A DNA stretch of 64,000 nucleotides from Escherichia phage HP3, in sequence record NC_041919.1. One strand, 5' to 3'. How positions within the stretch are numbered: position 1 is the first letter of the stretch; each line of letters begins with the position of its first letter. Shown here in pieces: positions 23,968 through 26,336 of this stretch. A program made the translations under genes and the position numbers. The notes below the pieces were generated by a model. The model was not told where the DNA came from, made no database searches, and saw nothing but the letters and a program-made list of their open reading frames with translations.

Positions 23968-24040
23968 TGGGAATTAGCCAAGTTGGTAAGGCACTGGATT
24001 TTGATTCCAGGATGCAAAGGTTCGAGTCCTTTATTCCCAG
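23968..24040 (+). tRNA. tRNA-Gln (anticodon UUG)
   Basis: Manual fold: acceptor tgggaat/attccca, anticodon stem ctgga/tccag, loop ttttgat, T-loop ttcgagt. Confidence 0.8.
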
Positions 24041-24041
24041 C

Positions 24042-24128
24042 GCGAGAATGGCCAAATTGGTAAAGGCACAGCACTTAAAATGCTGCGGAATGATTTCCTT
24101 GTGGGTTCGAGTCCCACTTCTCGCACCA
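24042..24128 (+). tRNA. tRNA-Leu (anticodon UAA), long variable arm, CCA encoded
   Basis: Acceptor gcgagaa/ttctcgc, anticodon loop cttaaaa, T-arm gtgggttcgagtcccac. Confidence 0.8.
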
Positions 24129-24133
24129 AATTT

Positions 24134-24207
<74 letters not shown>

Positions 24208-24217
24208 ATTTAATTTA

Positions 24218-24291
24218 CTCCGTGTAGCTCAGTTTGGTAGAGCGTCTGCTTTGGGAGCAGAATGTCGTAGGTTCAAATCCTGCCACGGAGA
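24218..24291 (+). tRNA. tRNA-Pro (anticodon UGG)
   Basis: Acceptor ctccgtg/cacggag, anticodon stem tctgc/gcaga, loop tttggga. Confidence 0.8.
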
Positions 24292-24293
24292 CT

Positions 24294-24383
24294 GGAGGCG
24301 TGGCAGAGTGGTTTAATGCACCGGTCTTGAAAACCGGCAGTCGCTCCGGCGACTCATAGGTTCAAATCCTATCGCCTCCGCCA
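24294..24383 (+). tRNA. tRNA-Ser (anticodon UGA), long variable arm, CCA encoded
   Basis: Acceptor ggaggcg/cgcctcc, anticodon stem ccggt/accgg, loop cttgaaa. Confidence 0.8.
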
Positions 24384-24388
24384 GTTTT

Positions 24389-24464
24389 GCTGATTTAGCT
24401 CAGTAGGTAGAGCAACTCACTTGTAATGAGAAGGTCGGCGGTTCGATTCCGTCAATCAGCACCA
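24389..24464 (+). tRNA. tRNA-Thr (anticodon UGU), CCA encoded
   Basis: Acceptor gctgatt/aatcagc, anticodon stem actca/tgaga, loop cttgtaa. Confidence 0.8.
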
Positions 24465-24465
24465 A

Positions 24466-24540
24466 GGCCCTGTAGCTGGAAGGTTCAAGCAAGCGACTCA
24501 TAATCGCCAGATGGTGGTTCAATTCCACCCAGGGCCACCA
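24466..24540 (+). tRNA. tRNA-Ile/Met (anticodon CAU; T4 reads this as Ile after modification), CCA encoded
   Basis: Acceptor ggccctg/cagggcc, anticodon loop ctcataa, T-arm ggtggttcaattccacc. Confidence 0.75.
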
Positions 24541-24549
24541 AATTAATTT

Positions 24550-24636
24550 GGGGAGTTATCCCGTAGAGGTAGCGGTGTGGACTGTAAATTCATTGTCATT
24601 GCGACTCGGGTGGTTCGACTCCACCACTCCCCACCA
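24550..24636 (+). tRNA. tRNA-Tyr (anticodon GUA), long variable arm, CCA encoded
   Basis: Acceptor ggggagt/actcccc, anticodon loop ctgtaaa, T-arm ggtggttcgactccacc; not one of the eight T4 tRNAs. Confidence 0.6.
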
Positions 24637-24640
24637 ATTT

Positions 24641-24715
24641 GGATGTGTAGCTCAATGGCAGAGCGATCGCCTGTTAAGCGATTGGTTATAGGTTCGAATC
24701 CTATCACGTCCGCCA
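24641..24715 (+). tRNA. tRNA-Asn (anticodon GUU), CCA encoded
   Basis: Acceptor ggatgtg/cacgtcc, anticodon stem atcgc/gcgat, loop ctgttaa. Confidence 0.7.
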
Positions 24716-24829
24716 AATTTGTGACAACTGTCACATTAATATCTACTTGACGCGATTATAGGGGTTGAACTGATCACTCTTCTCTTAATTTCGTGTGAAG
24801 ACATCTTGATTGTTGGAGTAGGTATTAAT

Positions 24830-24905
24830 GTGGCCGTAGTTCAGTTGGTAGAACTCGAGATTGTGATTCTCGTAGTCATGGGTTCGACTCCCATCGGTCA
24901 CCCCA
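24830..24905 (+). tRNA. tRNA-His (anticodon GUG) with extra 5-prime G, CCA encoded
   Basis: Acceptor gtggccg/cggtcac, anticodon stem cgaga/tctcg, loop ttgtgat. Confidence 0.7.
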
Positions 24906-24909
24906 ATTA

Positions 24910-24985
24910 CGGGGCATAGCTCAGAAGGAAGAGCAAGGACCTTCTAAGTCCTAGGTCGTAGGTTCGATCCCTACTGCCTCGACCA
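24910..24985 (+). tRNA. tRNA-Arg (anticodon UCU), CCA encoded
   Basis: Acceptor cggggca/tgcctcg, anticodon stem aggac/gtcct, loop cttctaa. Confidence 0.75.
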
Positions 24986-25003: not shown

Positions 25004-25354
25004 ATGAAAGGTAATGTTTATTTAGTAGTTCATGATTTAACATTCTATTTTAATCATAATGATACTGTTATTTCTGAACGTGTAATTAATTTGCTTTATC
25101 AGCATGCAGATTATGTTTATGTCGAAAACGAATATGGTCATTGGCAATTTCTCAAAAATCGTTCATTTGGTTTAGATGGTTACAAATATTTTGATCGTAA
25201 AGACCTTTTAGATACAATTCCGTTATCTACACAATATCAAAATCATAAGTCTTTACATAAATGCCGGCTAATTCGAAATGCTGAATCCGCGTATGAAGCA
25301 ATTGATTTGTGGCGTAAACGCCGTGAATATATTGATTCTTTAAAAGAATATTAA
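25004..25354 (+). CDS. Hypothetical protein
   Basis: 116 aa ORF immediately after the tRNA cluster; SD gaggaaaat upstream. Confidence 0.5.
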   Translation: MKGNVYLVVHDLTFYFNHNDTVISERVINLLYQHADYVYVENEYGHWQFLKNRSFGLDGYKYFDRKDLLDTIPLSTQYQNHKSLHKCRLIRNAESAYEAIDLWRKRREYIDSLKEY

Positions 25355-25658
25355 GAAACCGGGTCGCTACCGGTAAGTCGTCGGACTGATGTTCCCTGGA
25401 GTATAGTTTCCTCCCACAGTTTTACTGTGTTCTGGCTCTTTACTATCACAGCAGAAACGGCGCACCGAATTATCGATTCGAGGAAATATCTTTGCCGTAA
25501 GCCGAGTAGCGTTTTTGACGGAACGTTCGGATATGGTCGAGATATGGCCTTTTAAAAATATTGAGTAGCGTCAACTACTTAATAACCGGGTTCGAATCCC
25601 GGCGTTTCGTACAAACACTTGCCTTAGCAGGTGGAACCCCGACAAGGTTGCCGCAAGG
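25355..25658 (+). ncRNA. Candidate structured stable RNA(s) with tRNA-like T-arm
   Basis: About 300 nt non-coding, GC-rich relative to surroundings; ccgggttcgaatcccgg is a canonical T-arm; repeated gagtagcgt; T4 encodes small stable RNAs next to its tRNAs. Confidence 0.35.
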
Positions 25659-25689
25659 CTTAGCCCCGACCGAAAGGTTGGGGCTTTTT
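25659..25689 (+). terminator. Intrinsic terminator hairpin, repeat copy 1
   Basis: cttagccccgaccgaaaggttggggcttttt: 10 bp stem, GAAA loop, T-run; identical copy at 26216-26246. Confidence 0.65.
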
Positions 25690-25691
25690 GG

Positions 25692-25699
25692 TATAAATA
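25692..25699 (+). promoter_or_regulatory. Late promoter TATAAATA upstream of the internal-protein-like gene
   Basis: tataaata about 38 nt upstream of the ATG at 25738. Confidence 0.45.
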
Positions 25700-25737
25700 T
25701 TAGTATATTAAATCTACAAATTAAAATAGGAAATAAG

Positions 25738-26211
25738 ATGAAATCATATACTCAATTTTTAAATGAAGCGGTGTTAAATGAAGCATCTAGCACCGAAATT
25801 CAAGCTGTTGCAAAAGCTGCCATTGCCGCGGGTAAATATTCCTATAAAGATGCTTCTGATGAATCGCGATTCCAGTTTGCACGCGACATGAAAGCGGAAG
25901 GATTTACGGGAAATGCAGTTAGTATGGCCTGGAAAAGTTTAGTTGCTACTGGCGCTGCTTTTGCAAAGGCTTCGGGTAAACCTGCTCCTAAAGCAGATCC
26001 TAAAGCGGCACAAGAAAAAAATATCGTTAAAGGAATTATCGCTAAATATGAAGCTATCCTTAAAGAGCTTTTAGTAATCAAAACCGAAGGCCAAAAGTTA
26101 GCCCGTGCTTATAGTTTCAAAGATAATCCACATGTTCACTCTCTTGAGTATGTTGAAGACATCCAAAAAATTATTAAAGACCGCATTTGGTCTGCTAAAC
26201 AAATCAAATGA
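25738..26211 (+). CDS. Internal-protein-like protein with CTS-like N-terminus
   Basis: 157 aa from ATG with SD aggaaataag; N-terminus MKSYTQFLNEA resembles the T4 CTS; the ORF-track start at 25561 lies in the structured RNA region. Confidence 0.5.
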   Translation: MKSYTQFLNEAVLNEASSTEIQAVAKAAIAAGKYSYKDASDESRFQFARDMKAEGFTGNAVSMAWKSLVATGAAFAKASGKPAPKADPKAAQEKNIVKGIIAKYEAILKELLVIKTEGQKLARAYSFKDNPHVHSLEYVEDIQKIIKDRIWSAKQIK

Positions 26212-26215
26212 CATT

Positions 26216-26246
26216 CTTAGCCCCGACCGAAAGGTTGGGGCTTTTT
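26216..26246 (+). terminator. Intrinsic terminator hairpin, repeat copy 2
   Basis: Identical 31 nt to 25659-25689, followed by a T-run. Confidence 0.65.
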
Positions 26247-26336
26247 AGTTTGAATCACTCGGATAACGCTGTTACGGATAGTAACAAAGTAATAAATAAT
26301 TAATAACCAACCGATAAATTATTTCAAGGATTTTAA

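Follow-up and report, generated by a model that had tools for sequence, protein, structure and literature searches.

Structural and comparative analysis of the rnaD/rnaC locus downstream of the tRNA genes of Escherichia phage HP3

Gene order and composition of the locus

We analyzed the region from 25351 to 25690 of a 64,000-nucleotide stretch of DNA from Escherichia phage HP3 (NC_041919.1), here referred to as the window. The region very probably constitutes the 3'-terminal part of a T4-like (Tequatrovirus) tRNA operon, in which homologues of rnaD and rnaC are followed by a trailer and the operon terminator. The element is not new, since as judged by alignment this stretch encodes the counterparts of the T4 species 2 (rnaD) and species 1 (rnaC) RNAs. 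Both have been known in T4 from the 1970s onwards. The locus comprised the following elements:

25351–25466, + strand: rnaD homologue (T4 species 2 RNA), 116 nt, aligned to nt 4–119 of T4 rnaD
25467–25472, + strand: spacer GAAUUA of 6 nt between rnaD and rnaC; the T4 equivalent between its two annotated RNAs is AAAUUA
25473–25611, + strand: rnaC homologue (T4 species 1 RNA), 139 nt, 138/139 identity to NC_000866 70908–71046
25612–25661, + strand: 3' trailer with two small hairpins (25616–25633, and 25650–25659 with a GCAA loop), conserved with T4
25662–25689, + strand: intrinsic terminator ending the tRNA/rnaD/rnaC transcription unit; 10-bp stem, seven of its pairs G-C, and a downstream T run

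The original prediction had suggested that equivalents of the two small stable RNAs of T4 may be encoded here. This leading guess was right because the locus is the known rnaD/rnaC locus: it aligned base for base with T4 rnaD and rnaC, which are annotated at the aligned positions in the T4 reference record. The rnaC genes of T4 and the window differed by a single substitution (C here for U at 25538). By blastn 807 phage records were matched, 678 of them with at least 80% query coverage, and those of the T4 family label the match as rnaC. This label is found in the records of T4, RB5, RB68, GiZh, Kha5h and ATK47. The covariance model R1 had only one match in the window, from 25472 to 25611 with 153 bits, which is rnaC.

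The neighbourhood of rnaC was the same as in T4, with rnaD on its 5' side, the conserved trailer and terminator on its 3' side and all of them on the strand of the tRNA genes, at the distal end of the cluster. Upstream, 11 tRNAs including Met(CAU), Tyr, Asn and His were called by ARAGORN, compared with 8 tRNAs in T4, and segB was absent here. T4 rnaD begins 1 nt past tRNA-Arg, whereas in the window a 116-aa ORF (phrog_3355; 25004–25354) separates tRNA-Arg (end at 24985) from rnaD, which consequently does not follow directly on a tRNA. The TAA stop of this ORF (25352–25354) overlaps the 5' end of rnaD. The trailer of 50 nt was retained in phages without rnaC, where it is fused straight to rnaD. 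The terminator is labelled as such in GiZh and G9062, and an identical copy of it was present at 26219–26246.

The region from 25351 to 25690 was non-coding and moderately GC-rich, and its 3' two-thirds were strongly structured. As had been noted earlier, it lacked a convincing ORF: those within 25355–25658 did not exceed 42 aa, and a 216-aa ORF with a TTG start at 25561 is the upstream extension of a gene whose real start is the ATG at 25738. The locally raised GC content was likewise confirmed (0.43–0.48 vs 0.27–0.39 in the flanking ORFs) and equalled the level of the tRNA cluster. The folding check proposed with the original prediction showed the whole region to be far more stable than shuffled sequences (z −4.2). 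For rnaC alone z was −4.6 on the + strand and −1.3 on the − strand, i.e. the fold is strand-specific. The trailer together with the terminator reached −4.0, and the folding energy of rnaD alone was not below that of its shuffles (z −0.2).

Predicted folds of rnaC and rnaD

The rnaC alignment, evaluated with RNAalifold and pair counts, held 25 distinct sequences and covered ten or more genera or lineages. In the resulting fold 91.8% of the cells were paired, compared with 35–46% in slid controls. The covariation check across related phages supported a stable structure, with 18 pairs changed on both sides. The alignment showed a predicted architecture in which the 5' and 3' ends form an acceptor-like stem of 7 bp stacked on a canonical T arm, and in which a long arm with interruptions and a hairpin of 10 bp make up the interior:

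25474–25480, + strand: 5' strand CGAUUCG of the acceptor stem; partner CGUUUCG at 25603–25609, with five Watson-Crick pairs and two U.U mismatches
25481–25550, + strand: long arm, with a base of 3 bp (AGG, 25481–25483, with CCU, 25548–25550) around an interrupted hairpin
25515–25520, + strand: loop 1, UUGACG, exact complement of loop 2 (25569–25574)
25559–25584, + strand: 10-bp hairpin with the 6-nt loop CGUCAA (25569–25574); two-sided changes at 8 of 10 pairs
25586–25602, + strand: T arm, CCGGG UUCGAAU CCCGG; 100% of cells paired
25610–25613, + strand: tail U-ACA, in the place of discriminator and CCA in the neighbouring tRNA genes

Only 73% of the acceptor-stem cells were standard pairs because two U.U mismatches are conserved. 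The stem is contiguous with the T stem, and covariation was found at its third pair (A-U vs G-C, 6 against 19 sequences) and additionally at pairs 4–5 in phage TG1, in which both mismatches become U-A and C-G. The minimum free energy fold of mature rnaC closes with the same pairing of the ends.

The canonical T-stem-loop ccgggttcgaatcccgg that had been reported for this region corresponds to the T arm at 25586–25602. Its 5-bp stem and 7-nt loop UUCGAAU agree with the tRNA pattern (UUCRANY), and the stem covaries, with the variants CCGGG/CCCGG, CCUGG/CCAGG, CCAGG/CCUGG and CUUGG/CCAAG. With at most one mismatch, GGTTCGAATCC occurred 9 times in the window, where about 0.56 copies are expected by chance; 8 copies were located in tRNA genes and the remaining one was the rnaC copy. 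In phage VR7 both the T stem and the 10-bp hairpin carried mismatches without compensation. Most phages have the tail UACA, whereas Marfavirus reads UCCA and TG1 UUCA. According to the T4 annotation mature rnaC stops after UA (25611).

For the long arm two sequence types, here named A and B, were found which share one architecture. Its top helix covaries (C-G/A-U 18:7; U-A/A-U/G-C 15:6:4). The complementarity of loop 1 and loop 2 was complete (6/6 pairs) in 25/25 distinct sequences, and compensation arose twice independently, with UUGGCG/CGCCAA in Marfavirus and UUGAUG/CAUCAA in TG1. This indicates a putative kissing interaction between UUGACG and CGUCAA, and a contact between two molecules would be equally possible. 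Loops of the UUGGCG/CGCCAA type were also seen in further Marfavirus-type contigs.

A duplicated gagtagcgt had been pointed out as well. Both copies were present (25504–25512 and 25563–25571) and no other copy occurred in the 64 kb; the chance that some 9-mer recurs within 300 nt is roughly 0.17 by our own estimate. We rejected an internal duplication, as the repeat is limited to close T4 relatives and its copies are structurally different, one providing a stem strand only and the other a stem strand together with half of a loop.

Among 19 variants of rnaD, the 5' 45 nt and the 3' 30 nt hardly varied, whereas the centre was replaced. The comparison showed a predicted fold consisting of a 5' hairpin and a rod with conserved closing helices, the apex of which is swapped among T4 relatives. 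The elements were as follows:

25358–25374, + strand: 5' hairpin, ACCGG [GUCGCUA] CCGGU; 100% paired by RNAalifold and pair counts, two pairs with two-sided change
25377–25383, + strand: 5' strand GUCGUCG of the closing helix; partner CGGCG.CAC at 25458–25465
25390–25393, + strand: inner helix UGUU; partner AGCA at 25450–25453
25399–25446, + strand: rod and apical hairpin (variable module), including CACAG UUUUA CUGUG at 25415–25429

Two alignments gave 96.5% and 88.3% of paired cells, with compensatory changes in three helices. The sequence at the 5' hairpin of rnaD was wholly different in W70, Karamvirus, CC31 and CR9 and still formed a hairpin. The closing helix was invariant in the T4-like set, with one compensatory change from G-C to C-G in Certrevirus CR9; in Karamvirus the outer two pairs were missing and 5 bp were left. 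Within the inner helix U-A was replaced by A-U in 6/15 sequences, with one exception, and across genera the helix took the forms UUUAAU/AUUAAA, UUGUU/AACAA or GGU/ACC (96.9% of cells paired). T4 rnaD (119 nt) shares its ends with the window, whereas the central ~50 nt here form an unrelated hairpin. At least three unrelated apex sequences were found among T4-like phages on a nearly identical scaffold. A fourth version, which is short and conserved, was present in Karam-, Moon- and Vequinta-type phages.

Relation of rnaC to tRNA and other tRNA-like RNAs

The original prediction had proposed cggaacg and cgtttcg as a possible acceptor pairing. The complementarity itself was confirmed (25519–25525 with 25603–25609, 7/7 pairs including one G.U), but an acceptor role was not, since no compensatory change was found. 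The covariation rather supported a pairing of cgtttcg with the 5' end of rnaC (CGAUUCG), and cggaacg would lie in an internal hairpin as the 3' strand of the long-arm top helix. An alanine-identity pair G3.U70 arose solely from the pairing first proposed; it was not conserved and we rejected it.

It is very improbable that the stretch from about 25518 to 25611 is a degenerate or unusual tRNA, or a pseudo-tRNA, closed by cggaacg/cgtttcg. Such a tRNA would fit the complete pairing in the window and the 90.5% of standard pairs in the type-A alignment cells, the tRNA-Sec model of Rfam aligned in a matching fashion, and the stretch is labelled tRNA-OTHER in G9062 and tRNA-Lys in two other records. 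However, not a single pair showed a two-sided change, and the only variable position broke the pairing in 8/15 type-A sequences, in which a U to C change in the 3' strand was accompanied by G to A in the partner and the pair was lost. The changes in TG1 disrupted cggaacg/cgtttcg and yet completed the pairing with the 5' end. Homologues of type B retained the 3' strand without having the cggaacg strand, which in the window is locked in the covarying local helix, and an anticodon arm is absent. The prediction programs were equally negative: ARAGORN called 11 tRNAs in the window, none of them at rnaC or rnaD, and no tmRNA, and a separate RF00005 match was not obtained in 25250–25750 even at E up to 10. 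The only match of the tRNA clan was tRNA-Sec with 17 bits, far from its threshold of 47. In the whole window at gathering thresholds and in 25250–25750 at E up to 10, Rfam yielded chance-level matches only (sau-63, tRNA-Sec, isrK and anti-hemB).

That the region encodes small proteins, as implied by the hypothetical protein CDSs annotated over the match in many phage records of GenBank, can be practically dismissed. ORFs of 32–42 aa do exist. However, near-identical rnaC copies (G9062, L022) differ by 1-nt indels, the substitutions follow base-pairing logic and not codon logic, and the ORFs in the rnaD part are not kept between T4 and the window. Moreover, the T4 counterparts have been defined as RNAs (T4 annotation; PMC3014915, PMC9697503).

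Compared with canonical tRNA (RF00005), rnaC shares the T arm with its UUCGAAU loop and conserved G-C closing pair, a 7-position acceptor stem abutting the T stem, N-C-A at the position of CCA and a gene within tRNA arrays at tRNA-like spacing. In contrast, it has neither a D arm nor an anticodon arm of 5 bp and 7 nt. The arm-equivalent positions are taken by the 70-nt interrupted arm, which stands in the place of the D arm, and by the 10-bp hairpin with its 6-nt loop, and the loops of the two are mutually complementary. Its score did not reach the threshold of any tRNA detector used.

In the tRNA-like domain of tmRNA, the ends of a longer RNA likewise form an acceptor stem on a canonical T arm with a non-tRNA interior. 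However, rnaC was matched neither by the tmRNA models of Rfam nor by ARAGORN. It lacks G3.U70, its third pair being A-U or G-C, as well as a pseudoknot ring and presumably a tag reading frame, is only 139 nt long and according to the T4 annotation ends with UA instead of CCA. A T arm with an acceptor mimic is also carried by the non-coding, Y-RNA-like YrlA of bacteria. In YrlA the Ro-binding stem is built from the RNA ends, with the tRNA mimic in the interior, whereas in rnaC the ends make up the acceptor stem. YrlA and Y-RNA-like families of Rfam had no match in 25250–25750 at E up to 10.

Distribution, processing and possible functions

Our analysis extends the distribution of both RNAs, with rnaC occurring across many T4-like genera and rnaD also in Vequintavirinae, directly after a tRNA. 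At least ten genera or lineages of T4-like phages had an rnaC homologue within a tRNA array. In other genera the gene lies a few nt past tRNA-Trp and 7–8 nt before tRNA-Gly; in arrays the next tRNA begins 7–8 nt after the acceptor stem. Identity of rnaC within Tequatrovirus was at least 97%. Some T4-like phages had no rnaC, and Marfavirus contigs carried it with at most one tRNA nearby. The start of rnaD was located 1–5 nt past a tRNA 3' end in T4, GiZh, W70, Karamvirus and CC31. In CR9 the rnaD match was found between tRNA-Lys (about 87 nt upstream) and tRNA-Asn (8 nt downstream).

A scan of viral contigs with the 5' motif gave mostly false matches and one new homologue (L032). The combined pattern of 5' motif and T arm retrieved from metagenomes only ordinary tRNAs with a chance TCGAGGA upstream. 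Among 185,579 bacterial genomes the pattern of T arm and acceptor stem found only tRNAs and two coincidences in coding sequences, with R1 not exceeding 15 bits. By blastn neither rnaC nor rnaD had a match in 5,426 E. coli genomes. Since Rfam contains no family for either RNA and many GenBank records mislabel the locus (hypothetical proteins, tRNA-Lys, tRNA-OTHER), the alignments obtained here could seed proper models of rnaC and rnaD.

The roles of RNase P, RNase E and other nucleases in T4 RNA processing were described in the 1970s and 80s. Host tRNA-processing enzymes would cut both RNAs from the polycistronic tRNA transcript. RNase P would act at the acceptor stem of rnaC and at the next tRNA, and the 5' end of rnaD may be freed by 3' processing of the upstream tRNA. 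The tRNA-like minihelix and the compact fold would give rnaC its stability. Docking of its two loops would leave no free anticodon-like loop on display.

In T4, RNAC and RNAD have been listed as late RNAs whose function is unknown, and Northern blots have confirmed them (PMC9697503; PMC3014915); rnaC is a discrete, stable species of about 140 nt in infected cells (PMC9697503). When the T4-like phage BW-1 was adapted to E. coli strain ECOR34, three lines had a single mutation in common, a T-to-C change in the rnaD region (PMC12685909). By our arithmetic this change, at 164264, would fall in the apex, around nt 73. Our literature search found no functional study of rnaC or rnaD; reviews and omics papers call their function unknown. 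Their function is a small, fifty-year-old question in T4 biology, to which we add a comparative fold model, comprising the true acceptor pairing and the covarying loop-loop contact of rnaC and the scaffold with variable apex of rnaD. This structure points to precise mutants.

As a tentative reading, both may be dispensable host-interaction RNAs. Here rnaC would be a tRNA mimic for a factor recognising acceptor stem and T arm, and rnaD a scaffold with a fast-changing apical hairpin of importance in certain hosts. We infer that they arose as by-products of the tRNA operon which were retained for this purpose.

An origin of the stable RNAs as mere by-products without function in trans, the locus itself being a set of spacers and nuclease-guiding structures that serve processing and termination of the tRNA operon in cis, appears unlikely. 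It would agree with the position of the locus, always within or at the end of tRNA arrays, with the clearly cis-acting trailer and terminator, with the absence of rnaC from some phages and with the lack of target complementarity in the window or E. coli. However, the Marfavirus contigs retain rnaC close to one tRNA at most, and its conservation in Tequatrovirus exceeds that of usual spacers. Interior loops without a role in processing of the ends either do not vary or covary, and the rnaD region has acquired an adaptive mutation (PMC12685909). We consider it quite improbable, too, that rnaC and/or rnaD are regulatory sRNAs pairing with host or phage mRNAs via conserved single-stranded segments, e.g. 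UUUUAAAAAU (25550–25559) or the rnaD apex. The designation as small regulatory RNAs (PMC9697503) speaks in favour of this, and a variable apex on a constant scaffold recalls exchangeable seed regions. In contrast, no complementarity of at least 13 nt was found elsewhere in the window, with three 12-mers at chance level, and the E. coli genomes gave no blastn match. The best-conserved loops of rnaC are complementary to each other and hence not free, and judging from the T4 annotation the mature RNAs lack a terminator hairpin and U tail of the Hfq type.

The reading as host-interaction RNAs might be taken one step further, although this is rather doubtful. Both RNAs could act as host-range or counter-defence factors at the RNA level. 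In this case rnaC would act as decoy or adaptor in the shape of a tRNA, its end formed by acceptor stem and T arm would engage a host factor that works on tRNA ends, with the kissing arms hiding any anticodon-like loop, and the apex of rnaD would be sensed by, or would block, a strain-specific host system. According to the older T4 literature both RNAs are dispensable in laboratory hosts, which such a role would explain. If true, it would also account for the movement of both RNAs with tRNA arrays across unrelated phage families and for the one mutation in the rnaD region that the ECOR34-adapted lines have in common (PMC12685909).

The rnaD-rnaC locus and its surroundings

The region from 25351 to 25689 is an rnaD-rnaC locus of the Tequatrovirus type, since it aligns with T4 rnaD and rnaC and is closed by a conserved trailer and terminator. 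In the T4 reference record tRNA-Arg is followed, after 1 base, by rnaD ('species 2 RNA', 119 nt), a 6-nt spacer and rnaC ('species 1 RNA', 139 nt). The element is already known, and the original prediction of equivalents of the two small stable RNAs of T4 was correct, with one structural detail amended below. A tRNA gene cluster is located at 23968-24985 on the + strand (11 genes by ARAGORN, 10 above threshold by Rfam). The following features were found (+ strand coordinates):

25004-25354: ORF of 116 aa between tRNA-Arg and rnaD (phrog_3355, function not assigned by PHROG)
25351-25466: rnaD homologue by pairwise alignment to T4; ends conserved, central 50 nt unrelated
25473-25611: rnaC homologue by pairwise alignment, 138/139 identical to T4
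Between rnaC and terminator: conserved trailer of 50 nt
25662-25689: intrinsic terminator, 3' of the trailer
25738-26211: ORF of 157 aa (phrog_2280, function not assigned by PHROG)

Searching 50,697 phage records by blastn, 25340-25700 matched 807, nearly all of them T4-like phages of Escherichia, Shigella and Yersinia with 85-100% identity; several carried the label rnaC on the matching stretch. As had been noted from the sequence, the region holds no convincing ORF (at most 42 aa), has a raised GC content (0.43-0.48 versus 0.27-0.39 in neighbouring ORFs) and contains two copies of gagtagcgt, starting at 25504 and 25563. It is also structured as expected, the folding energy of the whole stretch being well under that of shuffled controls (z -4.2). 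The same was seen for rnaC (z -4.6 on the + strand, -1.3 on the - strand) and for trailer plus terminator (z -4.0); rnaD alone was not below its shuffled controls (z -0.2). The search of Rfam gave no family match in the region, and neither rnaC nor rnaD has a family there. In many GenBank phage records the locus appears as 'hypothetical protein' CDSs, 'tRNA-Lys' or 'tRNA-OTHER', with the rnaC label only in a handful.

Whereas a single base separates tRNA-Arg and rnaD in T4, the window carries the 116-aa ORF at this position. The ORF reaches into the start of rnaD with its stop codon and had no Pfam match; phrog_3355 is also annotated just 3' of tRNA-Met in Karamvirus UMC02 (2329-2703 of contig L005). 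An identical terminator hairpin stands on either side of the 157-aa ORF (25662-25689 and 26219-26246), and a T4 late-promoter-like TATAAATA is present upstream at 25692. This cassette (25660-26247) is shared with GiZh and G9062 but not with T4. The 114-nt spacer between tRNA-Asn and tRNA-His (24716-24829) carries AAATTTGTGACAACTGTCACATTAAT at 24720-24735, a perfect TGTGA-N6-TCACA palindrome of the CRP-site type and the sole one in 64 kb (0.10 expected by chance).

Distribution and fold of rnaC

Within Tequatrovirus rnaC was at least 97% identical and therefore too similar for covariation analysis. Distant copies, gathered by blastn and pattern scans, came from Karamvirus, Kagamiyamavirus, Moonvirus, Tegunavirus, Gelderlandvirus, Kanagawavirus and Marfavirus as well as from Edwardsiella phage PEi20, Citrobacter phage Ursula and Erwinia phage COW86c. 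In most of these rnaC lies within the tRNA array, a few nt 3' of tRNA-Trp and 7-8 nt 5' of tRNA-Gly; Marfavirus retains rnaC with no more than one tRNA in the vicinity.

A covariance model of rnaC (R1), built from 25 distinct sequences, found a single copy in the window, at 153 bits, and none in bacterial genomes among the pattern-scan matches from 185,579 genomes. Nor did it find rnaC at the loci of several T4-like contigs of roughly 170 kb in which rnaD abuts the trailer directly. This junction (…GCGCACCGA followed by ACACTTGCC…) is seen in the T4-like viral contigs L058 and L062-L065, of about 155-172 kb; rnaC is thus missing without remnant, like a separate module of some 146 nt that can be inserted as a unit. 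An unusual tRNA-like element of contigs L011, L017, L019 and L021, with the T arm CGGGTTCGAATCCCG, acceptor strands gcaaccg/cggttgc and a second T-arm-like hairpin closely 5' of it, is unrelated to rnaC (0 matches to R1).

RNAalifold gave the same architecture for the set with type A of the long arm, the type-B set alone and the mixed set:

25474-25480 with 25603-25609: closing stem CGAUUCG with CGUUUCG, the RNA's own 5' and 3' ends
25481-25550: long interrupted arm in the interior
25559-25584: 10-bp hairpin in the interior, 8/10 pairs changed on both sides
25586-25602: canonical T arm adjoining the closing stem; its own stem covaries

The T arm is the one originally predicted. The acceptor pairing proposed with it was not upheld: both strands are present (cggaacg at 25519-25525, cgtttcg at 25603-25609), but the pairing showed 0 compensatory changes, was disrupted at the sole variable position in 8 of 15 sequences and is impossible in type B. 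Instead of being an acceptor strand, cggaacg forms the 3' strand of a small helix topping the long arm. The 'tRNA-OTHER' of phage G9062 begins at this same strand and 'tRNA-Lys' annotations in two other records overlie rnaC, probably through the same misreading.

The third pair of the closing stem is A-U in the T4 relatives (6 sequences) and G-C elsewhere (19). Its two central U.U mismatches are conserved with the exception of Yersinia phage TG1, which has U-A and C-G. The long arm exists in two unrelated versions, A and B, both found within Karamvirus, which share the terminal small helix and loop. Phage VR7 is a counter-example, with one uncompensated mismatch each in the T stem and the 10-bp hairpin.

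The long-arm loop UUGACG (25515-25520) and the 10-bp hairpin loop CGUCAA (25569-25574) are perfectly complementary to each other, and all 6 pairs are possible in 25/25 distinct sequences. Both loops have changed jointly in Marfavirus and further Marfavirus-type contigs (UUGGCG with CGCCAA) and in TG1 (UUGAUG with CAUCAA). With the loop-loop helix included, 91.8% of cells (base-pair positions times sequences) were paired versus 35-46% with slid partners; 18 pairs in rnaC had double changes, and none of 500 shuffles reached the observed values. These two independent events are good, though not overwhelming, comparative evidence for a kissing interaction, which could in principle also be intermolecular.

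The last acceptor pair is followed by UACA in the majority of phages; Marfavirus has UCCA here and TG1 has UUCA. The tail coincides with the discriminator and CCA position of the neighbouring tRNA genes; in the T4 annotation mature rnaC ends after UA.

Variation of rnaD

For rnaD 19 variants were compared, from T4-like phages and the Vequintavirinae phage W70 (L066), and with the short W70 version as query rnaD proved to be far more widely distributed. It is also present in Moonvirus KM16, Certrevirus CR9 and other Vequintavirinae, and lies 3' of tRNA-Asn and 5' of tRNA-Asp in Karamvirus and relatives. The W70 copy comes after a tRNA-Met(CAU) (L066, about 1410-1492) that differs from that of the window (24466-24540) at only 3/75 positions, an indication that unrelated phage families have exchanged tRNA-plus-rnaD modules. 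The parts of rnaD are:

5' hairpin: five different sequences, a hairpin in every one
Closing helix: GUCGUCG paired to CGGCG.CAC; CR9 shows one compensatory change, and Karamvirus has no more than 5 bp
Inner helix: UGUU paired to AGCA, covarying within and between genera
Rod: base covaries

The apex is short and conserved outside the Tequatrovirus-like phages (GAGUUCCCUCAACGAUAAC); the T4 relatives have at least three unrelated longer hairpins instead, one of them in the window. Between the end of rnaD and tRNA-Asp, Karamvirus and relatives carry a conserved non-coding stretch of about 140-150 nt (L005 526-667, also L086, L087 and L088) with the hairpin GAAAGUUUACUUUC, which may be a further small RNA of the tRNA array.

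Processing and possible roles

These comparisons are useful for structure and distribution and do not solve function, which reviews and a 2022 omics study describe as unknown for both late T4 RNAs (PMC3014915, PMC9697503). From the context and established tRNA biology, the host tRNA-processing machinery would cut both RNAs out of the polycistronic tRNA transcript. RNase P and 3' trimming enzymes act on substrates of the kind that rnaC would offer in its acceptor/T-arm minihelix, and the 5' end of rnaD would arise through maturation of the preceding tRNA. An ORF is inserted before rnaD in the window, so that some other cut would be needed there.

The main alternative to the host-interaction role described below is that both are stable but functionless by-products of operon processing. 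Neither RNA showed complementarity to the rest of the 64-kb window or to 5,426 E. coli genomes (blastn). A role as accessory host-interaction factors, rnaC as a tRNA mimic without an exposed anticodon-like loop and rnaD as a scaffold with an exchangeable apex, is the favoured reading, though held with low confidence. The sole functional hint found for either RNA comes from BW-1, a T4-like phage of which three independent lines, after adaptation to E. coli ECOR34, had a single mutation in common, T to C at position 164264 in the rnaC-rnaD region (PMC12685909). By the published coordinates this position would correspond to about nt 73 of rnaD, within the apex.
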